From contig JADIYW010000028.1 in NCBI GenBank assembly GCA_016705125.1, forward strand, positions 192,041 through 256,040: a stretch of 64,000 bases of DNA, in the 5' to 3' direction. Position numbers and translations under genes: made by a program. The notes below the pieces were generated by a model. It saw only the letters and a list, made by a program, of their open reading frames with translations. It was not told where the DNA came from and searched no databases. How positions within the stretch are numbered: position 1 is the first letter of the stretch; each line of letters begins with the position of its first letter. Below, piece after piece: positions 25,725 to 53,940 of the stretch. Source of the DNA: Bacteroidota bacterium. GTDB taxonomy: Bacteria > Bacteroidota > Bacteroidia > Chitinophagales > JADIYW01.

Positions 25725-27332
25725 ATGTCGATAATTAAATCAAAAATCAATACAAATTCGGCTGCATATAAAGATAATTATGCTAAAATGTTGCTTAAAA
25801 TTGAAGAGCTAAACAAGCATTTAAAGCAATCATTGTTTCAAGGGGAAGAAAAACATTTAGCAAAAGCCAAAGCACAAGGCAAATTTTTGGCTCGAGAACG
25901 CATAGAATTATTATTGGATCAAGATTCTCCATTTCTGGAATTAATGCCATTAGCTGGTTTGGGTGTAAAAGGTGGCTTTGGAACGGGTGGAACAATGGTA
26001 TCGGGTATTGGTTATGTATCTGGAAAAATGTGTTTAATTACAGCAAATGTGGGCACCAATAAAGGTGGGGCAATTGATATTGCAACATTAAAGAAAGCAC
26101 TACGCATAAATGAAATTGGGCAAGAGAATAATTTACCAGCTATCAATTTGGTAGAAAGTGCAGGAGCAAATCTGCCCGACCAGGCACAGGTTTTTAATTT
26201 AGGAGGCAATAATTTTAAAGAAATTACAAGACGTTCGAAAAAAGGAATTCCAACTATTTCCATCGTATTTGGTAACTCCACAGCTGGCGGCGCATATATT
26301 CCTGGCATGAGCGATTATACCATTATGATTAAAAACAAAGCTAAAGTGTTTTTGGCTGGCCCGCCATTAGTAAAAATGGCTACAAATGAGATTGTGGACG
26401 ACGAAACACTAGGTGGTGCTGAAATGCATTCCAAAATATCGGGTGTTTCAGATTATTTGGCTCAAGATGAATTGGATGGAATTAGAATAGCTAGGGAGTT
26501 GATAGCAAATTTGACGAGTCCACAGTCGACAGACCACAGTCAACAGTCGACCATTTACAAAGAACCCAATTATCCAATTGATGAATTACTTGGTATTGTT
26601 TCCGTAGACACAAAAGTGCCTTTTGATTGCAGAGAGGTAATTGCTAGGATTGTAGATGGCTCCGAATTTCATGAATTTAAAAAAGAATATGGAACGACCT
26701 TAATCTGTGGTTATGCCAAAATACACGGTTATCCTATTGCAATCATTAGCAATAATGGTGTTTTATTTAATGACTCATCCAATAAAGGAGCACATTTTAT
26801 TCAGTTGTGCAATATGAACAACACGCCAATTATATTTTTACAAAACATAACTGGTTTTATGGTAGGCAAGGAATATGAACAAAATGGAATGATTAAAGAT
26901 GGTGCAAAAATGATAAATGCCGTTTCTAACTCTGAAGTACCTATGTTTACATTAATGATGGGCGCGAGCTATGGAGCGGGAAATTATGCCATGTGTGGGC
27001 GTGCCTATAATCCAAGGTTTTTGTTTTCTTACCCAAATAGTATGATTGCTGTAATGGGAAGTGAACAGTTGGCTGGTGTAATGCAAATGGTAAGTAGAGA
27101 ATCGGCAATAAAAAGTGGACAAACTTTTGATGAAGCCCAAGCTGCACAAATGAAAGAATTTATGAAAGCCGAAATTGAAAAACAAAGCAACGCATTTTTC
27201 GCCTCTGGACAATTGTGGGACGATGGAATAATTGATCCACGTGATACCAGAAATGTTTTCGGTTTGGTATTGGCGCTGACTTATATGAATGAAGTAAAAG
27301 GAACAAACGCATGGGGCGTGTTTAGAATGTAG
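25725..27332 (+). CDS. methylcrotonyl-CoA carboxylase beta subunit (carboxyltransferase)
   Basis: 535 aa; two crotonase-like carboxyltransferase domains (VESAGANLPDQ, GNSTAGGAYIPGMSDY, GPPLVKMATNE, LGGAEMH, NITGFMVGKEYE). Confidence 0.88.
   Translation: MSIIKSKINTNSAAYKDNYAKMLLKIEELNKHLKQSLFQGEEKHLAKAKAQGKFLARERIELLLDQDSPFLELMPLAGLGVKGGFGTGGTMVSGIGYVSGKMCLITANVGTNKGGAIDIATLKKALRINEIGQENNLPAINLVESAGANLPDQAQVFNLGGNNFKEITRRSKKGIPTISIVFGNSTAGGAYIPGMSDYTIMIKNKAKVFLAGPPLVKMATNEIVDDETLGGAEMHSKISGVSDYLAQDELDGIRIARELIANLTSPQSTDHSQQSTIYKEPNYPIDELLGIVSVDTKVPFDCREVIARIVDGSEFHEFKKEYGTTLICGYAKIHGYPIAIISNNGVLFNDSSNKGAHFIQLCNMNNTPIIFLQNITGFMVGKEYEQNGMIKDGAKMINAVSNSEVPMFTLMMGASYGAGNYAMCGRAYNPRFLFSYPNSMIAVMGSEQLAGVMQMVSRESAIKSGQTFDEAQAAQMKEFMKAEIEKQSNAFFASGQLWDDGIIDPRDTRNVFGLVLALTYMNEVKGTNAWGVFRM
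26520..26552 (+). repeat. GTCGAC-word stretch read in frame (PQSTDHSQQST) in the inter-domain linker
   Basis: ccacagtcgacagaccacagtcaacagtcgacc. Confidence 0.6.
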
Positions 27333-27430
27333 GGGAATTTATGATTTATGATTTGGGATTTATGATTTGGGGATAGGAATGAAGAATTTAAGAATTAGGA
27401 TAAGGAATTTAAGATTTGAAAATTTAAAAA
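27333..27430. repeat. ATTTATG/ATTTGGG/AATTTAAG word array with no cargo ORF
   Basis: Starts right after the MCC-beta stop: gggaatttatgatttatgatttgggatttatgatttgggg...aggaatttaagatttgaaaattt. Confidence 0.6.
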
Positions 27431-27731
27431 AAATGGATTTTTACTTTATAGAATAGAAAATATATTATTTACACAATAATAGGGCTACCCTTTTGCAATT
27501 ATTTTACAAAAAGTTAATTGAATCACTGGCTAATTATCATGTGAAGAAATCACTTGGATTAAATAAATTTAGTCCATACAAGAGGCTTGAATCTATTTAC
27601 TTGGATTGAATTTTATAAATTTTATAAATGAATTTAAAAAAGGAGCAAATAGTTGACCAATATTTAAAGAATTCTAAAAACATAATAAATAATAAACATT
27701 AATTAATTTAAAAAACCTAAATCAAAAATAA

Positions 27732-28244: not shown

Positions 28245-30257
28245 ATGTCTCAAATCTCAAATCCAAAGAAAATAACAAAACTTTTAGTAGCCAATCGGGG
28301 TGAAATAGCCATCCGGATTTTCAAAACTTGTCGCGAAATGGGCATTGCAACCGTTGCTGTTTTCTCTGATGCCGATGAAAATAGTTTATTTGTTAAAATG
28401 GCCGATGAAGCAGTTCGTATTGGTGGTAAGCAACCAAATGAATCGTATTTGGTAATGGATAAAATTATAGATGCAGCGAAACAAACAGGTGCAAATGCCA
28501 TTCATCCAGGTTATGGTTTTTTAAGTGAGAAAGTCGAATTTGCACAACGTGTAATCGATGAAAATATAATTTGGGTAGGTCCACATCCAAAAGCCATTGA
28601 AGTAATGGGATCTAAAATTGGTGCAAAAAAAATAATGCAATCGCATAATGTACCCACCATTCCTGGCTATCAAGGCGACGACCAAAGCGAATCAACCATT
28701 AAATCAAAAGCTATTGAAATTGGATTTCCCGTTTTGCTAAAAGCAAGTGCTGGCGGTGGCGGGAAAGGTATGCGTATCGTTCGGCAGGAAAGTGAATTGG
28801 ATAAAGCCATCAACGAAGCAAAATCCGAAGCTTTAAATGGCTTTGGTGATGATACTTTATTAATAGAAAAATATTTTGACACATCAAGACATGTAGAGTT
28901 TCAAATTTTTGGCGATAAACATGGAAACGCACTTCATTTATTTGAAAGAGAATGTAGCATCCAACGCCGTTATCAAAAAGTAGTAGAAGAAAGTCCTTCG
29001 CCATTTATTACCCAAGAAACACGCCAAAAAATGGGCGATGCTGCAGTTGCTGCGTGTAAAGCAATTGCTTATGATAATGCTGGAACGGTAGAATTTATTG
29101 TGGCACCTGATCAATCTTTTTATTTTTTGGAAGTAAATACTCGTTTGCAAGTAGAGCATCCAATTACTGAAGAAGTAACAGGTTTGGATTTAGTTCGATT
29201 GCAAATAGAAGTTGCCGAAGGTCGCCCAATTCCTTTCAACCAAGAAGCAATTTCGCAATGCGGACATGCAATTGAAGTACGAGTATATGCAGAAGATGCA
29301 GCCAATAATTTTATGCCTGTGAGTGGTAAAATAATAGATTGGATTCCTGCAAAAATTGATGGTTTGCGTTATGATACTGGAATAGAAAGTGGTTCAGAGA
29401 TTTCTACTTTTTACGATCCAATGATTGCAAAAATAATTGCAAAAGGGAAAAACAGACAAGAAGCTATTTCAAAACTTACATTGGCCTTACAAGAATTAGT
29501 TTTAACAGGTTTTACCACAAACAAAAACTTCCTTACTGCAATTTTACAAAATGAAGATTTTCAAAAGGGAGATTTTGATACCCATTTTTTAGATAAAATA
29601 TTCAAATATGAAGGCGAAAAATACAATCAAGAATCTATTGATATTTTAACTTGTGCTTTACAACATTATCGCTTTTTAGAACGGCAGAAAAATCAACCCA
29701 TTTCCAACCTGTCAGGTTGGAGAAATAATTTTTATCAACCACAACAAGAAAAATATAGCTTTGGTGGTTTTGAGTTTTTAGTAGAATATAAAAATGAAAA
29801 TGGTGTTTTGAATATTTCATTTGCGGAAAAAACATTTAAAAGTAAAAATTGTCCACAGACCACTGTCGACTGTCGACCGTTGACCGCTGACATCTTTTAC
29901 GTTTTCGAAATAAACAATATCCGTCGTAAATTTTTCTTCTCACAAAATGGCAATCAATATTTTGTTCATTCACCACAACTTGGGCAAATTGTTTTACTAA
30001 GTATAGATAAATTCCCGAATCCAATAGAAGAAACGGTAAAAGGTGGTTATGCTGCACCGATGCCTGGAGAGGTTACAATTGTTTTGGTAAAAGCTGGTGA
30101 TACGGTGAAAAGTGGTGATGCATTATTAAAAATGATTTCGATGAAAATGGAAAGCACCATTGAAGCACAAGCCGATGGCGAGGTGGAAGAAATTTATGTA
30201 AGCGACAAACAATTTGTAGAAGCAGGAACTTTGTTGTTAAAGATGAAGGAGGAATGA
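28245..30257 (+). CDS. methylcrotonyl-CoA carboxylase alpha subunit (biotin carboxylase + biotinyl domain)
   Basis: 670 aa; KLLVANRGEIAIRI, GGGGKGMR, EVNTRLQVEHP, and C-terminal biotinylation SMKME. Confidence 0.9.
   Translation: MSQISNPKKITKLLVANRGEIAIRIFKTCREMGIATVAVFSDADENSLFVKMADEAVRIGGKQPNESYLVMDKIIDAAKQTGANAIHPGYGFLSEKVEFAQRVIDENIIWVGPHPKAIEVMGSKIGAKKIMQSHNVPTIPGYQGDDQSESTIKSKAIEIGFPVLLKASAGGGGKGMRIVRQESELDKAINEAKSEALNGFGDDTLLIEKYFDTSRHVEFQIFGDKHGNALHLFERECSIQRRYQKVVEESPSPFITQETRQKMGDAAVAACKAIAYDNAGTVEFIVAPDQSFYFLEVNTRLQVEHPITEEVTGLDLVRLQIEVAEGRPIPFNQEAISQCGHAIEVRVYAEDAANNFMPVSGKIIDWIPAKIDGLRYDTGIESGSEISTFYDPMIAKIIAKGKNRQEAISKLTLALQELVLTGFTTNKNFLTAILQNEDFQKGDFDTHFLDKIFKYEGEKYNQESIDILTCALQHYRFLERQKNQPISNLSGWRNNFYQPQQEKYSFGGFEFLVEYKNENGVLNISFAEKTFKSKNCPQTTVDCRPLTADIFYVFEINNIRRKFFFSQNGNQYFVHSPQLGQIVLLSIDKFPNPIEETVKGGYAAPMPGEVTIVLVKAGDTVKSGDALLKMISMKMESTIEAQADGEVEEIYVSDKQFVEAGTLLLKMKEE
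29851..29891 (+). repeat. GTCGAC-word stretch read in frame (PQTTVDCRPLTAD) between the BC and biotinyl domains
   Basis: gtccacagaccactgtcgactgtcgaccgttgaccgctgac. Confidence 0.6.
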
Positions 30258-30306
30258 TTTGAGGATTTGAGGATTTGGAAATTTGAAAATTTGAAAATGA
30301 AATATT

Positions 30307-30831
30307 ATGAAAGAAATTATACCCATACAACAAAAAATATTTGAAATCAGGGGGCAAAAAGTTATGCTTGCCCCGATAGCTATCGGGGTTGATTTGGCTG
30401 TTTTGTATGAAGTTGAGACTAGGGTTTTAAATCAGGCAATTAAAAGGAATATAGAAAGTTTTCCAGATGATTTTATGTTTCAACTTTCTAAATCGGAATG
30501 GCAAAACATGTCATCACAATTTGTGATGACATATCCAATCAAAAGACCAAAATCTGCCATTCCTTATGCATTTACTGAGCATGGCGTAACCATGTTAGCA
30601 AGTGTTTTGAAAAGTCCCAAAGCAAGACAAATGAATATACAAATAGTTAGGGCATTTATTGCACTCAGAAATTGGGCACTTAATTATAAAGAATTAGCAG
30701 ATAAAATTGCGCAATTGGAAAATGACAACGATAAAAAATTTGCAGATATTTATGAGGCTTTAAATTATTTAGTAAGCGAAAAAGAAATAGAAACAAATCA
30801 AAAGGAACGAAATAAAATTGGATTTAAATAA
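30307..30831 (+). CDS. ORF6N (KilA-N-like DNA-binding) domain protein, copy 1
   Basis: IFEIRGQKVML...LAVLYEVETRVLNQAIKRN...FPDDFMFQL, and a coiled C-terminus. Confidence 0.7.
   Translation: MKEIIPIQQKIFEIRGQKVMLAPIAIGVDLAVLYEVETRVLNQAIKRNIESFPDDFMFQLSKSEWQNMSSQFVMTYPIKRPKSAIPYAFTEHGVTMLASVLKSPKARQMNIQIVRAFIALRNWALNYKELADKIAQLENDNDKKFADIYEALNYLVSEKEIETNQKERNKIGFK
30371..30388. repeat. 18-bp perfect GC-rich palindrome CCCCGATAGCTATCGGGG inside ORF6N copy 1
   Basis: Read directly. Encodes the extra residues APIAIGV where the paralogue has DF, inside the conserved VMLD-DLA-LY motif. Confidence 0.7.
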
Positions 30832-30868
30832 AAAATATAAATAATATACAAATCAAAAAGTAATAAAA

Positions 30869-31372
30869 ATGATCGAAACAATTTCCATACAACACAAAAT
30901 ATTTGAAATCAGAGGGCAGAAAGTTATGCTCGATTTTGATTTAGCTCAATTGTATGAAATAGAAACAAAGGTACTTAAGCAAAGTATCAGAAGGAATTTA
31001 AATAGATTCCCTTCTGATTTTATGTTTGAACTTACACCCGATGAATTTACCAGCTTGAGGTCACAAATTGTGACCTCAAGCTGGGGCGGAACAAGATATT
31101 TGCCTTTTGCGTTTACCGAACATGGTGTAACGATGTTAGCAAGTATCCTAAATTCTGACAAAGCAATTAATATAAACATTCAAATAGTTAGGGCATTTAT
31201 TACACTAAGAAATTGGGCACTTAATTATAAAGAATTAGCAGATAAAATTGCGCAATTGGAAAATGACAACGATAAAAAATTTGCAGACATTTATGAAGCA
31301 CTTAATTATTTAGTATCTGAAAAAGAAATGGAAACAAATCAAAAAGAACGTAAAAAAATAGGATTTAAATAA
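30869..31372 (+). CDS. ORF6N (KilA-N-like DNA-binding) domain protein, copy 2
   Basis: IFEIRGQKVMLDFDLAQLYEIETKVLKQSIRRN...FPSDFMFEL. The last 192 nt are nearly identical to copy 1. Confidence 0.75.
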   Translation: MIETISIQHKIFEIRGQKVMLDFDLAQLYEIETKVLKQSIRRNLNRFPSDFMFELTPDEFTSLRSQIVTSSWGGTRYLPFAFTEHGVTMLASILNSDKAININIQIVRAFITLRNWALNYKELADKIAQLENDNDKKFADIYEALNYLVSEKEMETNQKERKKIGFK

Positions 31373-31418
31373 CTCGAATTCCTAAATCATAAATCTAAAA
31401 TCATAAATCATAAATAAT

Positions 31419-32243
31419 ATGCTATACACACAAGAACAAACAGCCAATTTCGCAGAACAAAGTTTTGCTTATTTAATTGTAGAAGAAAAAGAAAATGTAT
31501 TAAGCATTACGCTCAATCGGCCTGATAAACGCAATGCCTTTCACATGCCTTTGGCAAATGAATTAGCGTATGCTTTAGCGTATGCGCATTATAACAATTC
31601 AATTTGGTGCGTAGTTCTCAAAGCAAATGGTCCAACTTTTTGTGCTGGTGCCGATTTAAAAGCATTTGCAGGTGCCGATACTACCGAAAAACCTTCAACC
31701 ATTCCTATGCCGAAAGACATGGTAAAACTCGGCGATGAATTCAATGGTTTACACAAACCTTGCATTGCACAAGTACATGCAGATGTTTACGCGGGTGGCT
31801 TCCTTATGATCGGCGGTGCCACACATGTAGTGGCAGTTGAGTCTGCAAAATTTGGTTTACCTGAAGTAAAACGCGGCATCTTTCCATTCCAAGTAATGGC
31901 AACATTAGAACCATTAATGTCGGCAAGGCAATTACTAGATTTATGTTTGAGGGCCAAAACATTAACCGCTCAAGAAGCAAAAGAAGTTGGATTAGTATCA
32001 GTTGTAGTACATCCTGACAGGTTGGAAGAAACGGTTCAAAATTTAGTTTCTGATATAAAAGAACAATCGCCAACTGCCATACGTTTGGGCCTAAAAGCAT
32101 TTCAAGAAATGAAAACAAAAAATGCCGACGACAAACACAAATACTTACATGCTATGTTGATGCAATGTTTACAGAGTAAAGATGCGGCAGAAGGTTTATT
32201 AGCATTCAAAGAAAAACGAAAAGCAAACTGGACAGGCAATTAA
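31419..32243 (+). CDS. enoyl-CoA hydratase family (methylglutaconyl-CoA hydratase-like)
   Basis: 274 aa; crotonase motifs NRPDKRNAF, FCAGADLK, GLPEVKRGIFP. Confidence 0.8.
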   Translation: MLYTQEQTANFAEQSFAYLIVEEKENVLSITLNRPDKRNAFHMPLANELAYALAYAHYNNSIWCVVLKANGPTFCAGADLKAFAGADTTEKPSTIPMPKDMVKLGDEFNGLHKPCIAQVHADVYAGGFLMIGGATHVVAVESAKFGLPEVKRGIFPFQVMATLEPLMSARQLLDLCLRAKTLTAQEAKEVGLVSVVVHPDRLEETVQNLVSDIKEQSPTAIRLGLKAFQEMKTKNADDKHKYLHAMLMQCLQSKDAAEGLLAFKEKRKANWTGN

Positions 32244-32248
32244 AAACT

Positions 32249-32329
32249 AACCGCAAAGGTCTCAAAGATATTACGCAAAGTTCTCTAAGAAAAACTATTC
32301 AATTCAAAAATTGCGCTCTTTGAAGTGTT
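32249..32329. repeat. cargo-less pair of inverted CGCAAAG-type word arrays
   Basis: Left: aaccgcaaaggtctcaaagatattacgcaaagttctctaag (32249-32289). Right: ttgcgctctttgaagtgtt (32311-32329). The left end matches 17/19 with the left flank of the GxxExxY-2 cassette. Confidence 0.45.
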
Positions 32330-32346
32330 AAAAAATAAAAAAGAAT

Positions 32347-33741
32347 ATGAGCAAAACAATAAGAATAGCAGGAGCACAAGGATTTTATGGTGATTCACCT
32401 TTGGGTGCAATGCAAATTGCCATGCAAGGCGCAGCCGATTATTTGATGCACGATGCATTAGCAGAACTAACTTTATCTATCTTACAAAAAGATAAGATAA
32501 AAGACCCAACGATGGGTTATGCCCGAGATATTGAGGTACATGCACGCACTTTATACCCAATGGCATTTGCAAAAGGCATTAAAATTGTAACCAATAGTGG
32601 CGGATTAAACCCTGAAAGTGCCGCCGAAAAGGTAAAAGCCATTTTAGAAAAACAGGGCATTAAAGGCGTCAAAATAGCAACCATTACTGGTGATGATGTG
32701 CTGGCACGTTTACCAGAATTTAAAGAAAATAATATAGAGTTAAATAACTTAGATGACAACTCCTCTTATTACGATTCCAAGTTTCCACCTACTCATGCCA
32801 ATGTATATATAGGTGCACAAAAAGTAAAAGAAGCATTGGACAATGGTGCCAATTTAATTTTAGCTGGTAGAGTTGCAGATCCTTGTTTGGCTTTGGGTAT
32901 TATGGCACACGAATACAATTGGAAAATAGACGATGCAACTTCACAGGAAGATTGGGACAGAATGGCATTTGCAATTACAATTGGTCATATTTTGGAATGT
33001 GGCGGACAAGCAAGTGGTGGCAATGCCTACTCCGAATGGCCTATGAATTATAGTGTGTCAGATTTGGGTTATCCCATTGCTCATGTGAATGAAGACTGCA
33101 CAGCCATTTTAACAAAAGCAGACAATACCGGAGGTAAAGTATCGAGAAATACAATTAGGGAGCAGCTGGTTTATGAAATTCACGATCCTACAAATTATAT
33201 AACGCCCGATGTAGTTGTTGACTTATCTAATATCATTTTGAAAGATGAGTCAGAAAATAGAGTATCCATTTCAGGTATAAAAGGCAAACCAAGACCAGAA
33301 AAATTAAAATTGTGTATCGGACAACATGAAGGATTTGTAACAGAGCAATTTTTCTTCTTCTCCTACCCTTTTGCTTATGATAAATTACAAATGTTCATAA
33401 AAGCCACCAAAGAAACATGGGCAAAATTACCCGTTCAAATTCTCGAATCTCGATTCAACATAATAGGAGTTAATGGTTTACATGAAGATGCGGTAGAAAT
33501 ACCAGATGTTGCAGAATTAAATCAGAGAAGTGAACTAGGATTACGAATTGCTATCAAACATAAAGACGACAGAACAGGAAAAACAGCCATTGCTGGTATT
33601 GTTTGTTTGGGTTTAAATGGCCCTCCAGGTGTAATTTCAGTGCCAGGTTGGGGAAATATGAATAGGGCAATGTTGAGTTTGTTTCCTTGTTTGATACCAA
33701 GAGAATTGATTGAACCTGAATTAAAATATATTGAAGTATAA
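32347..33741 (+). CDS. AtuA-like acyclic terpene utilisation protein (DUF1446), N-terminal body
   Basis: 464 aa; IRIAGAQGFYGDSP...DYLMHDALAELTL N-terminus typical of DUF1446. Confidence 0.7.
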   Translation: MSKTIRIAGAQGFYGDSPLGAMQIAMQGAADYLMHDALAELTLSILQKDKIKDPTMGYARDIEVHARTLYPMAFAKGIKIVTNSGGLNPESAAEKVKAILEKQGIKGVKIATITGDDVLARLPEFKENNIELNNLDDNSSYYDSKFPPTHANVYIGAQKVKEALDNGANLILAGRVADPCLALGIMAHEYNWKIDDATSQEDWDRMAFAITIGHILECGGQASGGNAYSEWPMNYSVSDLGYPIAHVNEDCTAILTKADNTGGKVSRNTIREQLVYEIHDPTNYITPDVVVDLSNIILKDESENRVSISGIKGKPRPEKLKLCIGQHEGFVTEQFFFFSYPFAYDKLQMFIKATKETWAKLPVQILESRFNIIGVNGLHEDAVEIPDVAELNQRSELGLRIAIKHKDDRTGKTAIAGIVCLGLNGPPGVISVPGWGNMNRAMLSLFPCLIPRELIEPELKYIEV

Positions 33742-33744
33742 ATT

Positions 33745-34184
33745 GTCCATAGTCGACGGTCGACAGTCGACCGTGGACTGTTAAACTAAATAATTATGGC
33801 ATTTAAATTTGAGGAATTAAGAATTTGGCAAAAAAGTGTTCAACTTACTACCATTATAGATGAAGTTGCTGACGGATTTCCCAAAAAAGAAATTTATAGC
33901 TTATCAAACCAAATTCGAAGAGCTGCTGATTCTGTATCGTTAAATATTGCAGAAGGTTCAACTGGTCAAACAAATCCTGAATTTAGAAGATTTTTTGGGT
34001 ATGGCTTTAAGATCTGGCATTGAAGTAATCGGTTGTATTTATTTAGCCAAAGAAAGAAAAATAATTAAAGAAGAAGATTTCAAAAGGGTATATGAAGGAT
34101 ATGAAGCATTAATTGTTTCAATTCAATCCCTTAGAAAAACATTATAAACTTTTCGCGGTGGACTGTAGACCGTGGACTGTGGAC
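33745..34184 (+). mobile_element. 440-bp cassette: four-helix-bundle gene bracketed by 29-bp imperfect terminal inverted repeats of GTCGAC words
   Basis: 33745-33773 gtccatagtcgacggtcgacagtcgaccg matches the reverse complement of 34156-34184 (gtccacagtccacggtctacagtccaccg) at 25/29 positions. Confidence 0.55.
33796..34147 (+). pseudogene. four-helix-bundle protein (23S rRNA intervening-sequence protein family), frameshifted
   Basis: FEELRIWQKS...LSNQIRRAADSVSLNIAEG...EFRRF, then LGMALRSGIEV...L in the +1 frame. The break is at T6, 33991-33996. Confidence 0.7.
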
Positions 34185-34200
34185 TTTAAAAAAAAACAAT

Positions 34201-34674
34201 ATGGAAAAAAAAATAGAATTTATGTTACGAGCCATTGAGCTATCAAAAAATGGGCTTGAAAGCGGAAAAGGTGGACCTTTCGGATGTGTAATTGTAAAAG
34301 ATGGAAAAATAATTGGTGAAGGCAACAATCAGGTTACATCCACCAATGATCCCACTGCTCATGCCGAAATGGTTGCAATAAGAAATGCATGCAAAAACAT
34401 AAACAGCTTTCAACTCGAAGGCTGCGAAGTATACACTTCATGCGAACCATGTCCTATGTGTTTAGGAGCTATTTATTGGGCACGTCCCGATAAAATTTAT
34501 TTTGCAAATAATCGATCAGATGCTGCTGAAATAGGCTTCGACGATGCTTTTATTTATGATGAAATAGAAGAAAAAATAGAAAATAGGCAGATACAAATGG
34601 AGCCTTTGGGTAGAATGGAGGCTTTGGAAATTTTTAAACAATGGAAATTAAAAACAGATAAAATTGAATACTAA
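34201..34674 (+). CDS. CDA-fold nucleoside/guanine deaminase
   Basis: GGPFGCVIVKDGKIIGEGNNQVTSTNDPTAHAEMVAIR and PCPMCLGA zinc motifs. Resembles B. subtilis GuaD. Confidence 0.75.
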   Translation: MEKKIEFMLRAIELSKNGLESGKGGPFGCVIVKDGKIIGEGNNQVTSTNDPTAHAEMVAIRNACKNINSFQLEGCEVYTSCEPCPMCLGAIYWARPDKIYFANNRSDAAEIGFDDAFIYDEIEEKIENRQIQMEPLGRMEALEIFKQWKLKTDKIEY

Positions 34675-34685
34675 AATTTAAAATT

Positions 34686-35003
34686 ATGGCAATGATAAAA
34701 TTAATAGATATTGCATCGGCTCGAAGTGGCGATAAAAACAATGTGTGCAATATTGGTGTAATGGCGAAATCCGTAAATGATTATGACACTTTAAAAAAGT
34801 ACCTAACCCCTGAACTTGTAAAAGCACATTTCAAGGGATTGATAAAAGGCAAAGTGGAACGCTTTGAATGGGATAGTTTAGAATCTCTAAATTTTGTATG
34901 CCATGAAGCCTTAGATGGTGGTGCATCTCGAAGTATGCGTATGGATAGTTTGGGTAAAAATTTTAGCTCCCATTTATTGAGACTTGAGATAGAAATAAAT
35001 TAA
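34686..35003 (+). CDS. small protein resembling the C-terminal domain of full-length AtuA
   Basis: 105 aa; IASARSGDKNNVCNIGVMAK resembles the RSGDKG..N.GV motif I recall from AtuA C-termini. Confidence 0.45.
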   Translation: MAMIKLIDIASARSGDKNNVCNIGVMAKSVNDYDTLKKYLTPELVKAHFKGLIKGKVERFEWDSLESLNFVCHEALDGGASRSMRMDSLGKNFSSHLLRLEIEIN

Positions 35004-35537
35004 CCGCAAAGTAAACAAAGTTTTTTCGCAAAGTTCAAAAAGAAAAATGAAAGAAAATGAGTTATCACATATTGTAATTGGATTAGCAATTGATATACAT
35101 AGTTCACTTGGTCCTGGATTATTAGAAAGTGCATATCAAGAATGTTTATTTTACAAATTAAATAAAGAAGGATTCAAAGTTGAAAAAGAAAAAACAATGC
35201 CATTAATTTTTGAGGGCTTAAAATTAGATTGTGGTTATAGAATAGATTTATTAGTTGAAAATAAATTAGTAATCGAAATAAAAAGTGTAACGGAATTAAA
35301 TGATGTTCATTTAGCACAAACCCTTACATACTTAAAATTAGGAGATTATAAACTTGGATTATTAATAAACTTTAATGTAACTCTTTTAAAATTTGGAATA
35401 AAAAGAGTAGTAAATGGATTATAAACTTTTAAATTCTTACTTTAAAAACTTGAAAGACTTATATATTATTTAAAAAACTAATTACATATAAAAACCTTTG
35501 CAAACTTTGCTTAAAAACTTTAAATTCTTTGCGGTAA
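35001..35537 (+). mobile_element. cassette: GxxExxY gene bracketed by ~42-bp imperfect inverted CGCAAAG-word arms
   Basis: Left arm 35001-35042 and the reverse complement of right arm 35495-35537 match at 32/42 positions ungapped. The left arm begins with the host stop codon (aatTAAccgcaaag). Confidence 0.45.
35047..35424 (+). CDS. GxxExxY protein (PD-(D/E)xK nuclease-fold mini-protein), copy 1
   Basis: 125 aa; GPGLLESAYQECL (GxxExxY) and YRIDLLVENKLVIEIKS (D..ExK). Confidence 0.8.
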   Translation: MKENELSHIVIGLAIDIHSSLGPGLLESAYQECLFYKLNKEGFKVEKEKTMPLIFEGLKLDCGYRIDLLVENKLVIEIKSVTELNDVHLAQTLTYLKLGDYKLGLLINFNVTLLKFGIKRVVNGL

Positions 35538-35551
35538 AAAAAAATTAAAAA

Positions 35552-37057
35552 ATGACAAACTTAGAACAATATTACTTAACAGAAGAGCACCATTTATTTC
35601 GTAATTCATTGCGTGATTTTTTGGATAAAGAAGTGGTGCCGTTTGTAGATCAATGGGAAATTGACCATCAGGTGCCAAAAGAAATTTTTAGAAAATTTGG
35701 CGAAATGGGTTATTTTGGATTAACTCAAGAAGAGAAATATGGCGGCTCTAATTTAGATTTTTGGTACGACGTAATCTTTATCGAAGAAGTTTCAAAATCC
35801 AATTCCGGTGGTTTTGGCGCTAGTATTTCGGCTCATCCTTATTTGTCTATGTCACACTTGAAACATGAAGGAAGTGATTTTTTGAAAGATAAATATTTGC
35901 CAAAAGCCATTTCTGGAGATTGGCATGGCGCACTAGCAATCACCGAGCCTCACGCTGGATCAGATGTTGCGAACATAAAAACAACAGCAAAAAAAGACGG
36001 CGACTTTTATATAATAAATGGATCAAAATGTTTTATTACCAATGGTGTATCCGCCGATTATATAATTGTAGCTTGCAAAACTGCTAACGGAATTTCCATG
36101 ATTTTAGTGGAAGGAAATGCTATAGGTTTATCAAAAAACAATTTGAATAAATTAGGATGGAAAGCAAGTGATACAGCTGAGTTAGCATTTGATAATGTCA
36201 AAGTACCAATTACCAATTTATTGGGCGAAGAAGGTAAAGGATTTTACTATATCATGCAACGATTTGAATTAGAAAGACTTACACTAGCACTTGGGGCATT
36301 GGCTTCTTCAGAATGGGCATTGCAATATGCATTACAATACATGAACGAACGAAAGGCTTTTGGAAAAACAATAAATAAATTCCAAGTTTTAAGACATAGA
36401 ATAGCACAAATGGCTGCTGAAATAGAAAATGTAAAAACATTTACTTACCACGTTTGCAAAATGTATAATGACAAAAATTATTGTGTAAAAGAAGCATCAA
36501 TGTCAAAATTATTGGCCACCGAATTGTCAGATAAAGTGGCCTACCAATGCTTGCAAATGTTTGGTGGATACGGCTACATGGAAGAATACAAGATTGCACG
36601 CTTTTTCAGAGATTCGCGATTAGGAACTATTGGTGGTGGCAGTTCTGAAATTATGTGTGAGATTATTGCAAAGATGGTTATTGATGATGTGAGTTATGGT
36701 CGACAGACGACGGTCGACAGTCCAAAGCAAAAGGAATTAAACATTGAAGACATAATTAGTAGCTTACCAAATCGATTTAAAAAAGAAAAAGCAAATGGTA
36801 TTGAAATGACCATTCTATTTGAGTTTGAAAATGATTTATACTATCAAATCGAAATAAAAAACCAAAATATTGTTTTGTCCACGGTCGACAGTCGACAGTC
36901 GACAGTGGACTTAACCATTACAACCACAACCGAAACATACATCGCAGTAGAAACGGGCAAACTAAATCCCCAAGAAGCATTTATGAGTGGGAAAATAAAA
37001 GTAAGCGATTTGGGTAAAATGATGCAGTTTGGTTCTCTTTTTAAAAAATATAATTAA
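35552..37057 (+). CDS. acyl-CoA dehydrogenase fused to a C-terminal SCP2 domain (candidate isovaleryl-CoA dehydrogenase of the cluster)
   Basis: 501 aa; ACAD motifs (ALAITEPHAGSD, FGGYGYMEEY, GTIGGGSSEI). The C-terminal ~110 aa resembles the stand-alone SCP2 ORF at 19543-19878. Confidence 0.85.
   Translation: MTNLEQYYLTEEHHLFRNSLRDFLDKEVVPFVDQWEIDHQVPKEIFRKFGEMGYFGLTQEEKYGGSNLDFWYDVIFIEEVSKSNSGGFGASISAHPYLSMSHLKHEGSDFLKDKYLPKAISGDWHGALAITEPHAGSDVANIKTTAKKDGDFYIINGSKCFITNGVSADYIIVACKTANGISMILVEGNAIGLSKNNLNKLGWKASDTAELAFDNVKVPITNLLGEEGKGFYYIMQRFELERLTLALGALASSEWALQYALQYMNERKAFGKTINKFQVLRHRIAQMAAEIENVKTFTYHVCKMYNDKNYCVKEASMSKLLATELSDKVAYQCLQMFGGYGYMEEYKIARFFRDSRLGTIGGGSSEIMCEIIAKMVIDDVSYGRQTTVDSPKQKELNIEDIISSLPNRFKKEKANGIEMTILFEFENDLYYQIEIKNQNIVLSTVDSRQSTVDLTITTTTETYIAVETGKLNPQEAFMSGKIKVSDLGKMMQFGSLFKKYN
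36698..36723 (+). repeat. GTCGAC-word stretch read in frame (GRQTTVDSP) at the ACAD/SCP2 junction
   Basis: ggtcgacagacgacggtcgacagtcc. Confidence 0.6.
36877..36910 (+). repeat. GTCGAC-word stretch read in frame (STVDSRQSTVD) inside the SCP2 domain
   Basis: gtccacggtcgacagtcgacagtcgacagtggac; its ends are self-complementary (gtccac/gtggac). Confidence 0.6.
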
Positions 37058-37074
37058 CCACAAAGTTCTCAAAG

Positions 37075-37523
37075 TTCCGAAACTTCGGAATTACACAAAG
37101 CACACAAAGATGAAAGAAAATGATTTAGCATATAAAGTAATAGGTTTAGCAATTGAAGTACACAATGTATTAGGACCTGGATTATTAGAAAGTGCATATC
37201 AGGAATGCTTATTTTATAAAATAGAAAAAGAAGGATTACAAGTAGTAAAAGAAAAAGCAATGCCATTGATTTATGAAGAAGTAAAATTGGATTGTGGTTA
37301 TAGAATAGATTTATTAGTAGAAAATAAATTAGTTATAGAAATAAAAAGTGTAGATGCTTTAAATGAAATACATCTTGCACAAACTTTAACTTATCTTAAA
37401 TTAGGAAAATATAAACTTGGATTATTAATAAATTTCAACACCATACTTTTAAAAAGTGGCATAAAACGAATTATAAACGGAAATCCCACTTAGTGAACTT
37501 TGTGTAATTCCGAAGTTTCGGAA
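37075..37523 (+). mobile_element. 449-bp cassette: GxxExxY gene bracketed by perfect 26-bp terminal inverted repeats
   Basis: 37075-37100 ttccgaaacttcggaattacacaaag is the exact reverse complement of 37498-37523 ctttgtgtaattccgaagtttcggaa. Each repeat also contains a ttccgaa/ttcggaa hairpin. Confidence 0.6.
37110..37493 (+). CDS. GxxExxY protein (PD-(D/E)xK nuclease-fold mini-protein), copy 2
   Basis: MKENDLAYKVIGLAIEVHNVLGPGLLESAYQECL...YRIDLLVENKLVIEIKS. I prefer the ATG at 37110 over the track start at 37029, which runs through the upstream gene end and the inverted repeat. Confidence 0.8.
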   Translation: MKENDLAYKVIGLAIEVHNVLGPGLLESAYQECLFYKIEKEGLQVVKEKAMPLIYEEVKLDCGYRIDLLVENKLVIEIKSVDALNEIHLAQTLTYLKLGKYKLGLLINFNTILLKSGIKRIINGNPT

Positions 37524-38673
37524 TTACCCAGTTTGTGTTAAAAAAACAAACAAAATAAATTTAATTTTTTAAAAAAATACACCCCCAAAATGAGTGCAAC
37601 ACAATCTTATCTTAGAAAAGAACACGAATCTTTCAGACAAACGATTCGACAATTTTTAGAAAAAGAAGCCATTCCAAATATTGACCAATGGGAATTGGAT
37701 GGCAAAATACCACGTGTGAAGAAATATCAAAAGTTTTCTCTGGTGGATTTACCATTACTGCCGCCGTGCAAGCATTTATGAGCACTCCATACATTATGAA
37801 ACACGGTAGTGAATATTTGAAAGAAAACTATCTAAAGCCTGCCATAACAGGAGAAAAAATTGGCTGTATCGGAATTACCGAACCAGGTGCTGGCAGTGAT
37901 GCAGCAAATATTCAAACTCGTGCTATTAAAGAAGGCGATTATTATATCGTAAATGGCTCAAAAACATTTATTACAAATGGTATTTATGGACAATTTGTAA
38001 TATTGGTTTGTAAAACAAACCCCGAAGCCGGCGCTGCAGGTGTAAGCCTATTGGTATTGGATTTGGATGCAGAAGGGGTGTCAAAAAACAAACTTAAAAA
38101 ATTAGGATGGCACGCATCCGACACAGCGGAATTGCATTTTGACAATGTTAAAGTACCCGTCAAAAATTTATTGGGTGAAGAAGGAAAAGGATTTTATTAC
38201 CTCATGGGAGGCCTACAATTAGAACGTTTATCTGCTGGAATAATGGGCTATGCATCCTGTGAGGCCATGTTGGAATACTCCTTAAAATACATGAATGAGC
38301 GAAGTGCTTTTGGAAGAACAATCAATAAATTTCAAGTATTGCGACACAGAGTAGCACAATTAGCAGCAGAAATAGAAAGCATTAAAATATTTACACTACA
38401 AACTTGCAAAATGCATGAAGAGGGTAAATATGTTGTAAAAGAATGCTCGATGGTGAAATTATTAGCCACCGAATTAGCAGACAAATGTATGTATCAATGT
38501 CTACAGTTTTTTGGAGGTTATGGCTATATGGAAGAATACAAAGTGGCACGTGCTTTCAGGGATTCTCGAATAGGAACAATTGGAGGTGGTTCGTCAGAAA
38601 TTATGCGCGAAATAATCGCTAAAATGGTCATAGATGATATTGGTTATGAAAGAGCCGAATCTAATGTAGATGG

Positions 38674-38713
38674 CCAACCGTCGACGGTCGACAGTCAACC
38701 GTTGACTGTGGAC
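38674..38713 (+). repeat. GTCGAC-word stretch read in frame (QPSTVDSQPLTVD) at the ACAD/SCP2 junction of copy 2
   Basis: ccaaccgtcgacggtcgacagtcaaccgttgactgtggac. Confidence 0.6.
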
Positions 38714-38839
38714 AAAATATTTGCCACTTTACCCGCACGTTTTAAAACCGAAAAAGCAGTTGGAAAGAACTTAAATTTAGAATTCAGGTTTGACTCCTCT
38801 ACTTATTATGTACTTATAAAAGATGGGAATTTAGAAATT

Positions 38840-38875
38840 CAGTCGACCGACGACCGTCGACCGTCGACCGTGGAT
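38840..38875 (+). repeat. GTCGAC-word stretch read in frame (QSTDDRRPSTVD) inside the SCP2 domain of copy 2
   Basis: cagtcgaccgacgaccgtcgaccgtcgaccgtggat. Confidence 0.6.
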
Positions 38876-39028
38876 TGTTTAGTAGAAACAGATGATGCGA
38901 CTTATATCGCTGTTGAAACTGGGAAATTAAACCCTCAAGAAGCCTTTATGACAGGAAAAATAAAGGTATCCGATTTGATGCAAATGATGGCTTTTGGAGC
39001 ACTTTTCAAAAAACTATAGGTAAATAAA

Positions 39029-39069
39029 CTTAAAACAATCCTTGATTATATTTCAAGGATTGTTTTAAG
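39029..39069. terminator. bidirectional rho-independent terminator between convergent genes
   Basis: Perfect 17-bp stem cttaaaacaatccttga / tcaaggattgttttaag with a 7-nt loop. Confidence 0.7.
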
Positions 39070-39104
39070 TTATATACTTTTTAAAAATCGATTTATATAT
39101 AGAA

Positions 39105-39803
39105 TTATAATAATCCTAAGGCCAATTCTACCATTTGAGAAAATGAATTTTGACGTTCTTCTGAGGTAGTAGAATCACCCGTAATCAAACTGTCGCTTAT
39201 CGTAAAAACACCCAAAGCATCTACTTTATATTTATGAGCCAAAGTAAATAAAATGGAAGATTCCATTTCAACAGCCAAAACGCCATGTTCGGCCCACACT
39301 TTAAACCAATTTGGGTCGCTATTATAAAATTCATCAGCGCTTAATACATTTCCAGCTTTTACATTTATTCCTTTTGTTTTAGCAATATCCATTGCTTTTA
39401 AAAACAAAGGTATGCTTGCCGTTGCAGCATAATCGGCACCATTAAAATATTTCGTATTTATATATGAGGTAGTACTTGCTGAAACTGCTACAACAATATC
39501 ACGTAAATTAATAAATGGTTGCATTGAACCTGCCGTACCCACTCTAATTAATTGTTTACAACCATATTCACGTATCAATTCATTGACATAAATAGAAATT
39601 GAGGGAATACCCATTCCGGTACCTTGTACCGAAACCCTTTTACCTCTATAAAATCCAGTAAATCCAAGCATATTTCTTACGTCATTGTAACAAAAGACAT
39701 CATCCAAAAAAGTATCTGCAATATACTTAGCCCTTAGCGGGTCACCTGGCAATAGGATTGTTTCAGCAATTTCACCCTTTTTTGCATTTATATGGATACT
39801 CAT
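39105..39803 (-). CDS. deoD: purine nucleoside phosphorylase, DeoD type
   Basis: [33 protein letters not shown]... is collinear with E. coli DeoD. I prefer the start at MSIHI over the track start at 39821. Confidence 0.88.
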
Positions 39804-39922
39804 ATTATTTTTTAATCCCAAAAATAAGAAATGTATTTTAAAGCAGATGAGTTAATTTTAAAAACCTTGTATGGGCTTTTATAAATTCAAAAAAAAACAT
39901 ACTTTTAGAAAAAAAATACAAA

Positions 39923-40396
39923 ATGGAGTTAGATGATTTAATAAATAAGGTAACTGACATCACAACAACAATTACTGATAAAATTGATGATTGGAAAACT
40001 GATTTTTTTGATGATGAAAAACAAAATATCATTCAAGAATTTAGAGATAATACCAAGGAAAAAATAAGTGCAATTTTAAATGACTTACAGAATTCAACAA
40101 AACTAATAGAAAATATAGGATACGATTTTGTTGCGTTTAATATCGATTTAGGCATTCCACCGAGTGTTCAACTAATATTTGAAGTATTGCCATTAAAAGC
40201 TGAAAAGATAGAAGCACAATTGCCAGAGGACATCAATTTGGTAATAAAAATAGTTTTAAAAGCACTACTTCGGACAAATGCATTAGCACAGTCCATCAAA
40301 TTAAATGATTTTGAATGCAAACAAGTTACACTTACAATGGGTTTAAATCCTGATATTGTATTGAATTATAAAAAAAAACTTAAAAATGGGAAATAA
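39923..40396 (+). CDS. hypothetical protein (157 aa)
   Basis: Open frame only. Confidence 0.3.
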   Translation: MELDDLINKVTDITTTITDKIDDWKTDFFDDEKQNIIQEFRDNTKEKISAILNDLQNSTKLIENIGYDFVAFNIDLGIPPSVQLIFEVLPLKAEKIEAQLPEDINLVIKIVLKALLRTNALAQSIKLNDFECKQVTLTMGLNPDIVLNYKKKLKNGK

Positions 40397-41246
40397 AATA
40401 TACTACCTAGCTTTTTTAATATTATTAATTTCCTGTAATAAAACGGATGAATTAGGATATAAAATTACAAAATCTGCTATCTATTTTGTAAAAGGCAATC
40501 CACCGAGACCTGTTGAAATAATTGATGCTGATGTGCTATCCTTTAAAATTCTGGATACTACAAAAATGTATGCTAAAGACAAAAACAGTGTTTATTTCTT
40601 AGGAGATATTATTAAAGATGCAGATCCAAATTCATTTGAATTACTTGAAAAACCTTATTATACAAAAGACAAAAATTATGTGTATCTGAGCTCTACCAAA
40701 TTTTGCAGTTATCCCGAAACTTTTTCATTTATAGGCAATTATTATTGTAAAAACAAAAAATACGTTTATCGACCAATTGGCAGAGGAGATAAGGTAACTG
40801 AGGATATAAATAATTTCAAATTAATAAAAGAAGAAGGATTATATGATTATGCCATCGATAGCAAATTTGCTTATGTAAATGGTATGCGTATTGAAAAAGT
40901 CAACATTAATGCCTATAAACCAATCAAACAAGGTTTTTCAAAAGATGACAAACAAATTTTTTACTTAGATAAAAAAATGCCCATTAGCGATTATCCAAGT
41001 TTTGAAATAGTGCAACTACCCTATTCTAAGGATAATTATAGGGCTTATTTTAGGGATTTTATTATAGAAAAATCAGACCCAAAAACCTTTAAAATTTTAA
41101 ATTTAGATGCTTCCTGCAGTTGTGATACAACACATGCATATTTTAAAAATGAAATAATAAAAAAAGCCGATATGGAAAGCATAAAAAAAGGATTGCCTGT
41201 AATTGGTTGCAATGAAAATGAAGTATTTTTTGGCCAGTTTGATTAG
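40386..41246 (+). CDS. DKNYY-repeat lipoprotein
   Basis: Lipobox-like LLISC, and repeated DKNSVYF / DKNYVY / KKYVY motifs. Confidence 0.6.
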   Translation: MGNKIYYLAFLILLISCNKTDELGYKITKSAIYFVKGNPPRPVEIIDADVLSFKILDTTKMYAKDKNSVYFLGDIIKDADPNSFELLEKPYYTKDKNYVYLSSTKFCSYPETFSFIGNYYCKNKKYVYRPIGRGDKVTEDINNFKLIKEEGLYDYAIDSKFAYVNGMRIEKVNINAYKPIKQGFSKDDKQIFYLDKKMPISDYPSFEIVQLPYSKDNYRAYFRDFIIEKSDPKTFKILNLDASCSCDTTHAYFKNEIIKKADMESIKKGLPVIGCNENEVFFGQFD

Positions 41247-53569: not shown

Positions 53570-53940
53570 TTTTAACTAATTGAGGAGGTCAGCAGTCGAA
53601 AGTCAGCAGTCCGCTGAAAAGTTATTTGTTATTAAGTTATTGGTTATTAGAAGAGTTTAATTTGAGGATGTTTACTGTTGACGGTTCACTGAAAGGAAGT
53701 CCACGGTCCGCGGTCGACAGTCCACTGTAAGGTTATTGGTTATTTGGTTACTTGTATTCATTAAACATTTAAAATTTAACAATTTTGTCCTTCATTAGCT
53801 AATTCGCTAATTATTTCATTATTTAATTCGCCCTTTCTTGATTCTTGTTTCTAAAAATCTTGGGTCCATTAAACATTTAACATTAAGAATTCAACATTTA
53901 AATTTCATTACTTAATTATTTCATTCATTCCCTTTCTTTT
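53570..53940. repeat. long word-mosaic array, including the inverted copy (B) of the 19971-20175 composite repeat
   Basis: taattcgctaattatttcatt (53800-53820) is the exact reverse complement of the 21-bp core at 19996/20081. 53833-53877 matches the reverse complement of 20031-20068 (34/38 plus a 7-nt indel). CAGTC and TTATTGG modules lie at 53588-53755. Confidence 0.65.

Follow-up and report, generated by a model that had tools for sequence, protein, structure and literature searches.

A GxxExxY nuclease gene is nested in the arms of a palindromic intergenic repeat family in Bacteroidota

Does a perfect inverted repeat around one small gene mark the ends of a transposable unit, or the arms of something else? 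We addressed this question at a locus within a window of 64,000 nt from Bacteroidota bacterium GCA_016705125.1 (contig JADIYW010000028.1, 192,041-256,040, forward strand). The gene, here called copy B, encodes a protein of the GxxExxY family, and a first-pass annotation had taken its flanking repeat as the hallmark of a transposable or recombination-mobilised unit. We found that GxxExxY genes lie nested within palindromic intergenic repeats, a recurrent and orientation-specific link between the gene family and a repeat family across Bacteroidota. The repeat family is apparently undescribed, and no published account of a GxxExxY-repeat association was found in the literature searched, subscription literature being outside its scope. 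We propose, at about an even chance, that the GxxExxY nuclease and these CRCAAAG-box palindromes are partners that work in the manner of REPIN-RAYT systems, or of a homing nuclease lodged in a multi-copy palindromic target.

The inverted repeat was confirmed. Within the window the 26-mer TTCCGAAACTTCGGAATTACACAAAG has exactly two occurrences, one on the plus strand (37075-37100) and one on the minus strand (37498-37523), so that the two segments are exact reverse complements, as first described. The claim that such a match lies beyond chance also held, as none of 100 dinucleotide shuffles yielded the 26-mer pair even with up to 3 mismatches allowed. Complementarity reaches 35 nt at 91% (37075-37109 with 37489-37523), and the actual arms exceed the earlier 26-bp account, running over 37054-37109 and 37489-37541. 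The only sizeable open reading frame (ORF) between them is the GxxExxY gene, and each arm contains a mini-hairpin of the form TTCCGAA-NN-TTCGGAA, both as previously stated. The features of the locus are as follows.

37054-37109, plus strand: left arm of copy B, with a TTAACC terminus, four boxes and a mini-hairpin between boxes 2 and 3
37055-37057, plus strand: stop codon TAA of the upstream acyl-CoA dehydrogenase/SCP2 gene (35552-37057), inside the left-arm TTAACC
37058-37065, plus strand: left-arm box 1 of copy B, CCACAAAG
37068-37074, plus strand: left-arm box 2 of copy B, CTCAAAG
37075-37090, plus strand: mini-hairpin of the left arm, TTCCGAA-AC-TTCGGAA
37094-37100, plus strand: left-arm box 3 of copy B, CACAAAG
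37103-37109, plus strand: left-arm box 4 of copy B, CACAAAG, directly abutting the ATG
37110-37493, plus strand: GxxExxY copy B, 127 amino acids (aa), an intact PD-(D/E)xK nuclease with E27 and Y30, which belong to the GxxExxY motif, and D67, E77 and K79
37489-37541, plus strand: right arm of copy B, with box 4' CTTAGTG, box 3' CTTTGTG, the mini-hairpin and an outer part
37508-37523, plus strand: mini-hairpin of the right arm, TTCCGAA-GT-TTCGGAA, its local palindrome extended to 37501-37530 in the window strain

The layout of the arms was clearest in the sister strain L006, which belongs to the same species as the window (98-99% identical). Its arms are 56 nt each and ~89% complementary, with about six mismatches, and every arm consists of four "CRCAAAG" boxes and their spacers. 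The left arm reads TTAACC-ACAAAG-TT-CTCAAAG-[TTCCGAAACTTCGGAATTA]-CACAAAG-CA-CACAAAG-ATG, and the right arm, as its reverse complement, TTAACC-ACAAAG-TG-CACTAAG-[TTCCGAAACTTCGGAATTA]-CACAAAG-TT-CACTAAG. In the window strain the outer ~17 nt of the right arm (37524-37541) are rearranged and the local hairpin is longer, where sister strains read CTTAGTGCACTTTGTGGTTAA. The boxes meet the coding sequences at both ends. The TAG stop codon of GxxExxY (37491-37493) falls within the first right-arm box, CTTAGTG, and the overlap between the upstream stop codon and the arm terminus at copy B recurs at 35001-35003, beside a further GxxExxY gene of the window (copy A), as well as in L011, L012 and L036. 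The box layout of the copy B left arm is the same in the orthologues L011-L014.

The perfection of the 26-mer has a local origin. The mini-hairpin is specific to the window species, where it was seen at the 37-kb locus alone among 341 loci compared, and it occupies the same spacer, between boxes 2 and 3, in both arms; hence the perfect 26-mer. Orthologues in other genera have unrelated short spacers at this position. The first-pass reading gains no support here, since both the 26-mer and its mini-hairpin are confined to one locus in one species. Three states of the left mini-hairpin coexist within that species: the window and L006 keep it intact, L001 has lost 10 nt of it, and L002, L003 and others have lost 13 nt, in two variants. 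Most sister contigs carry one of the two shortened forms. An identical 15-nt insertion at mirror positions requires copying between the arms at the DNA level. Together with the deletion states it indicates that the arms evolve in concert and are indel hot spots. The two arms thus swap sequence with each other, and their indel hot-spot behaviour is expected of hairpin-capable DNA.

We then compared copy B with other GxxExxY genes. About 2 kb upstream, copy A is enclosed by the same kind of arms.

35000-35042, plus strand: left arm of copy A, TTAACCGCAAAG followed by more CAAAG boxes; 43 nt, 77%
35047-35424, plus strand: GxxExxY copy A, 125 aa, 78% identical to copy B
35496-35538, plus strand: right arm of copy A, ending CTTTGCGGTAAA, its terminus covarying with the left arm

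The terminal variable base is G..C in copy A and A..T in copy B. Across 23 elements this base was complementary in 22 (A..T in 12, G..C in 10, one exception; p = 1e-5). The arms also surround the orthologues L011-L014, L016-L017 and L036. One of these, the site-A copy of L013 (990-1364), has an in-frame stop (QECL*YK) and is either a decaying copy or a sequencing error. In 80 GxxExxY loci retrieved from GTDB genomes, CAAAG boxes upstream of the gene reached a density of 1.56 per 100 nt (background 0.15), and CTTTG boxes downstream one of 1.26 per 100 nt (background 0.12). An arm was present in 97 of 170 GxxExxY flanks and in 35 of 237 other non-coding gaps within the same loci, which served as the control (odds ratio 7.7, p = 3e-19). 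The association extends to distant relatives. A 33%-identical subfamily in genomes of GC content 0.53 is nested in the same arms (L333, L336, L338, L339), those of L333 reading TTAACCGCATAGAACGCAAAGAGCGCAAAAAG..ATG...TGA-CCTTTGCGTTCTTTGTGGTTAA. A 38%-identical homologue has the variant flanking boxes CACGAAT/ATTCGTG, and in Bacteroides finegoldii, which encodes the GxxExxY protein WP_032839887.1, the boxes are CACAGAG/CTCTGTG.

The same arms also occur without the gene. Gene-free units consist of the two arms around a loop of 4-15 nt and hold no gene remnant. One of them lies in the window.

32247-32331, plus strand: gene-free palindrome of the same family, left arm intact and right arm degenerate in the window strain

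In the sister contig L001 the corresponding unit is intact (5145-5233), between the enoyl-CoA hydratase and AtuA genes. We also observed a complete replacement at this site. L002 (4747-5311) carries a four-helix-bundle cassette with GC-rich heptamer-like repeats between the same two genes, where L001 (5142-5248; window 32244-32346) has the gene-free CAAAG-box palindrome. Gene-free units were likewise found at the sites of both GxxExxY copies: one in L011 at the site of copy A, and two in tandem in L017 at the site of copy B. These palindromes represent another arm subtype, and the genomes that carry them are distant ones. In L016 the copy B site is taken instead by a four-helix-bundle gene, which has a separate inverted repeat of 15 nt. 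An orthologous intergenic site may thus carry, in one genome or another, GxxExxY with its arms, a different cassette, or only the arms. Gene-free units also stand in tandem arrays, in L028, L029, L057 and L069. The first-pass view of a mobile unit therefore survives in part: there is DNA-level turnover at orthologous sites over evolutionary time, but the arms are not the private ends of a one-gene transposon.

As a reciprocal test, metagenome contigs were scanned with the arm alone, regardless of the gene. The scan gave 140 matches on contigs of 30-69% GC, and the box sequence was kept across this whole range. At least 39 of the 140 are gene-free palindromes, and many others are single arms or tandem box arrays with a period of 9-10 nt. 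In a small repeat-selected sample the loop ORFs of paired elements were all GxxExxY, with one exception on a phage-like contig (L152), where the same arms bracket an unrelated 182-aa ORF. In a scan of viral contigs about half of the arm matches look like chance or coding sequence, and none adjoins a GxxExxY gene.

These data bear on the view that the palindromes serve in these phyla as general punctuation of intergenic DNA, for instance as terminators, insulators or mRNA stabilisers, and that GxxExxY is one of several small hitchhiker genes which settle in such DNA and thereby come to lie next to them. Most palindromes indeed lack a gene, the L152 element encloses an unrelated one, and palindromes also sit at the boundaries of MNT/HEPN pairs and where restriction-modification genes meet. 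Passive co-location is nevertheless unlikely. It leaves unexplained the 7.7-fold enrichment of arms at GxxExxY flanks over other non-coding gaps of the same loci, the fixed polarity of CAAAG upstream and CTTTG downstream, and the exact abutment of ATG and stop codon on the boxes. The association moreover recurs in the 33%-identical subfamily, with variant boxes around the 38%-identical homologue, and the neighbouring four-helix-bundle genes carry heptamer repeats instead of CAAAG boxes. Among the restriction-modification operons, L339 (1260-2910), L338 and L323 have GxxExxY together with MNT/HEPN toxin-antitoxin-like pairs between the methylase and ResIII helicase genes, with a CAAAG-box palindrome at each gene junction.

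The arms might act in RNA rather than in DNA. They would then pair as a panhandle in a read-through transcript and be cut by a double-strand RNase or gate translation, with DNA mobility secondary. Both the minimum free energy and the centroid folds of 37050-37545 pair the arms (z = -4.6), with AUG and stop codon at the base of the stem, and PF05635 four-helix-bundle genes of the same operon are also bracketed by inverted repeats. The gene is also oriented for such a transcript: at 57 loci with large neighbours it shares the direction of the upstream gene 53 times and is never antisense to both. The mismatch spectrum shows no sign of a selected RNA stem. Of the 166 mismatches counted in 26 well-aligned arm pairs, 107 are transversions, and G.U-compatible mismatches number 22 on the gene strand and 37 on the other, showing no enrichment. 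Box sequence is conserved beyond what pairing demands from 30% to 69% GC. Mismatch spectrum and box conservation therefore favour sequence-specific recognition, most simply by a protein, over selection for RNA pairing. Single arms and gene-free tandem arrays are common, and the 15-nt insertion shared by both arms requires DNA-level copying, neither of which suits an RNA element. No Rfam family matched: Rfam 15 gave nothing relevant at E <= 1 over window positions 30000-41000, and among 10 repeat-rich loci nothing reached the gathering score. We consider an RNA element improbable as the primary role of the arms.

We next assessed the protein. Copy B scored 144.5 bits on TIGR04256 (cut-off 35 bits) and 141.4 bits on PF13366 (PDDEXK_3; cut-off 22 bits), over profile positions 2-116 of 116. 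The PD-(D/E)xK core noticed in the first-pass annotation was borne out by sequence and predicted structure. Residues G24, E27, Y30, D67, E77 and K79 are invariant over two subfamilies, and an AlphaFold model built on a two-subfamily alignment (predicted local distance difference test score, pLDDT, 94.3; predicted TM-score, pTM, 0.88) has the minimal alpha-alpha-beta-beta-beta-alpha-beta core of this fold. A first model made from close homologues only (pLDDT 65.8) gave a meaningless Foldseek result and was superseded. The best Foldseek match in the PDB was Cas4, followed by lambda exonuclease, tRNA-splicing endonucleases and the I-Bth0305I homing endonuclease domain, all PDB matches being at a TM-score of ~0.5 or below. 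The predicted structure thus confirms a nuclease fold and places no close structural relative beside it, and from its invariant catalytic residues and modelled fold the nuclease looks active. PDB sequence searches, with the single sequence and with a profile, found nothing. PADLOC and PHROGs gave weak Cas4-like matches only, and GxxExxY is therefore not a known defence system. The family PF13366/TIGR04256 is large (18,976 clusters at 50% identity), and its members are 65-90% identical between bacterial orders. Some are natural tandem fusions of two domains, which suggests that the protein may act as a dimer.

The history of the locus was then examined. Copy B has orthologues at the same site in four other Chitinophagales genomes, with 85-91% amino acid identity, nonsynonymous divergence (dN) of 0.07-0.11, synonymous divergence (dS) of 0.7-2.1 and dN/dS of ~0.08. 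The neighbouring acyl-CoA dehydrogenase is less conserved (72-77% amino acid identity, dN 0.13-0.27, dS from 1.1 to saturated). Plasmids carry GxxExxY in 8 of 72,556 records and the phage collection lacks it, a scarcity that fits a vertical chromosomal lifestyle as reported for REPIN-RAYT. The copy B gene is thus old, vertically inherited, strongly constrained and oriented for read-through from the upstream gene, and its locus is not a recently active transposon.

A classical transposon, as the first-pass annotation had it, would have the arms as terminal inverted repeats, GxxExxY as transposase, a TTAA target and gene-free palindromes as deletion derivatives resembling miniature inverted-repeat transposable elements (MITEs). 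The conserved TTAACC...GGTTAA termini, the many gene-free copies and the variable presence at orthologous sites are all in its favour, and on either side the 4-mer most often found outside CC..GG is TTAA (63 and 68 of 129 elements). Because TTAA reads as a palindrome, any test for target-site duplication is limited; in the 99 informative elements the flanks matched directly once and in inverted form never, and no such duplication could be demonstrated. Among the hallmarks of insertion sequences and transposons, terminal inverted repeats are present, while near-identical copies elsewhere and a known transposase are not. No identical copies were seen in differing contexts, the two window copies differ by a dS of 0.68 and the orthologues by 0.7-2.1. 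The gene-free arms meet at a loop of 4-15 nt with no gene remnant, and arms also occur singly and in long box arrays of 9-10-nt period. The sole domain of the protein is the hydrolytic nuclease core PDDEXK_3, with no match to transposase families in Pfam, NCBIfam or PHROGs. A classical transposon is accordingly a doubtful explanation of the locus.

Simpler readings of the arm sequences were rejected outright: two independent terminator hairpins, or chance, because the loop (AC vs GT) and a 10-nt extension are inverted and the arms run well past the hairpins; an outward Bacteroidetes-type promoter (TTTG ... TAnnTTTG) in the right arm, because by inspection the -7 TA is absent and spacing differs between orthologues with and without the mini-hairpin; and DnaA boxes, because G/C-type arms do not fit the likeness of TGTGGTTAA to TGTGNAWAA.

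We return to the proposed partnership of nuclease and repeat. We infer a nuclease that recognises or cuts the repeat, and host recombination that then spreads or homogenises the units. The 26-bp repeat is the core of two ~56-nt arms of the palindromic intergenic family, each arm a run of 3-4 CRCAAAG boxes spaced 9-13 nt in an element TTAACC...GGTTAA. GxxExxY occupies the loop, its ATG after the last left box and its stop codon in the first right box. On the proposed view, the inverted repeat around the gene would represent one repeat unit split in two, or a pair of units, and not terminal repeats served by a transposase. The protein would stand to the repeat as RAYT does to REPINs, as its cognate enzyme. 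Acting as a dimer, it may bind and cut the inverted arrays of boxes or a hairpin or cruciform that these can form. With the arms serving as homology, recombination or replication by the host could then copy palindromes with or without the gene to new sites, or homogenise them.

Several observations weigh against this partnership. Of the 140 matches selected by the repeat alone, only 3 have a GxxExxY gene directly after them, and the repeat is therefore far commoner than the gene. Arms stand alone, without the gene, in phage-like contigs, and palindromes lie beside MNT/HEPN cassettes between the mod and res genes of restriction-modification operons. Conversely, ~40% of GxxExxY flanks have no recognisable arm. 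There are multiple GxxExxY copies per genome, unlike single-copy RAYTs. Nor is there a sign of recent movement: dS is ~1 between genera, the exact copy B protein was found on 21 contigs in one context throughout, and another family member on 24 contigs, likewise in a single context. Finally, the 125-aa protein is a minimal PD-(D/E)xK core without a separate DNA-binding domain, and a hydrolase of this kind is incapable of strand transfer alone, so propagation would need host functions.

A broader generalisation is one we offer only tentatively. The GxxExxY family may comprise the cognate nucleases of phylum-spanning CRCAAAG-box repeats, forming a second, independently evolved system of the REPIN-RAYT type. 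On this reading, which we think somewhat less likely than not, the system would rest on a PD-(D/E)xK hydrolase in place of an HUH transposase, and the gene would persist in or beside the repeats it maintains. The association gives PF13366/TIGR04256, a large conserved family without assigned function, a first testable substrate. Should the link hold, repeat-enzyme partnerships like REPIN-RAYT arose more than once, with different catalytic chemistry, and a common class of intergenic repeat in Bacteroidota and other phyla is explained. These repeats sit in operons, including restriction-modification and catabolic ones, where they are indel hot spots. For annotation, the locus cautions that an inverted repeat around a small gene need not represent transposon ends.

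Other repeats and small genes surround GxxExxY in the window. Tandem heptamers GTCGACN/GTGGACN gave 45 matches against 0.05 expected, in the following arrays.

33751-33778, 34158-34185, 36699-36722, 36877-36910, 38675-38714, 38842-38875, 26517-26551, 29858-29884 and 53699-53725: heptamer arrays GTCGACN/GTGGACN

The heptamers flank a four-helix-bundle gene and also occur in frame in each of the two acyl-CoA dehydrogenase/SCP2 genes, where the arrays come in pairs ~170 nt apart and code for STVDSRQSTVD-like linkers. The four-helix-bundle gene (33796-34147; PF05635, '23S rRNA IVS protein', IVS standing for intervening sequence) is bracketed by heptamer arrays instead of CAAAG boxes; it is frameshifted in the window and intact, at 116 aa, in sister contigs. 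A cytidine/deoxycytidylate deaminase-family gene (34201-34674), between AtuA and a separate gene for the AtuA ferredoxin-like domain, adjoins the four-helix-bundle and GxxExxY insertions, and the catabolic operon is thus broken by several small unrelated genes. At ~37726 (ORFs 37590-37781 and 37688-39019) the second acyl-CoA dehydrogenase gene is 100 nt short relative to L003 and L006. The loss splits the reading frame and reflects a strain-specific pseudogene or an assembly error.

Two further sites vary within the species. The spacer after the carboxyltransferase gene (27333-27731; L003 230-598; L001 58-588) is polymorphic: in L003 GATTTAT/GATTTGG heptamer arrays enclose a four-helix-bundle gene, in L001 and L004 CTTTG-box arms precede an unrelated ORF of 176 aa, and the window has a heptamer array only, with no ORF. 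At 30307-31372 two tandem ORF6N-domain genes are flanked by tandem arrays (30257-30298 and 31383-31419) of an 8-mer (ATTTGAAA) and a 7-mer (TAAATCA), and sister strains carry one or two copies.

Finally, we compared the GxxExxY units with known systems. MITEs and integron attC sites are likewise short, structured, multi-copy palindromes that adjoin promoterless co-oriented genes, but GxxExxY lies inside the palindrome, its boxes are conserved beyond structure, and gene-free units form tandem arrays. An attC site as such was rejected: the ORF is enclosed by the palindrome and does not precede attC, and RYYYAAC/GTTRRRY cores, judged by eye, fit some elements only. No integron integrase was seen among the ORFs of the window, to which the search was confined.

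Intervening sequences with PF05635-family ORFs are found in the 23S rRNA genes of Leptospira and Coxiella. There, as here, flanking inverted repeats form a long stem within a host transcript and its loop contains a small ORF, and PF05635 genes occur in the same operon as GxxExxY. The GxxExxY gene differs in lying between protein-coding genes, not in rRNA, and in arm mismatches that carry no sign of selection for RNA pairing.

A free-standing homing endonuclease with a PD-(D/E)xK fold is exemplified by I-Ssp6803I. The likeness lies in a small nuclease gene that interrupts a (pseudo)palindrome existing uninterrupted elsewhere, as was found at sites A and B; by analogy, such an arrangement would protect the occupied copy and offer empty ones as targets. 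In contrast to such genes, GxxExxY would target a repeat present in many copies instead of a conserved host gene, lies in no intron or intein, and is strongly conserved where decay would be usual.

IS110-family elements insert into REP sequences, as ISPpu9 of Pseudomonas putida does (PMC12288879, PMC8450116). In both cases a gene-bearing insert lies inside a pre-existing palindrome, and the apparent flanking inverted repeat is therefore a split host repeat. The insert here consists of nothing but a 125-aa nuclease gene; it has no element ends and no DEDD or serine recombinase, and neither a circular intermediate nor recent copies are evident for the GxxExxY unit.

The closest parallel drawn here is with REPIN-RAYT. 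Three reports describe vertical, chromosomal, long-term persistence of this system under purifying selection (PMC3116915, PMC3337134, bioRxiv 2022.05.22.493013), and to that extent the vertical, constrained persistence of GxxExxY resembles it. Both systems combine many copies of a short palindromic intergenic repeat with a small enzyme gene flanked by inverted repeats, and in both the flanking sequences are inverted copies of a repeat that is also dispersed gene-free. They differ in the enzyme, which is a Cas4/lambda-exonuclease-like PD-(D/E)xK hydrolase for GxxExxY and an HUH/Y1 transposase for RAYT, and in its number, since GxxExxY is multi-copy (two in 64 kb) and RAYT single-copy per repeat family. 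The repeat itself also differs, being an array of 7-nt boxes here and a single REP hairpin there, and the GxxExxY gene often sits exactly in the loop of one unit.

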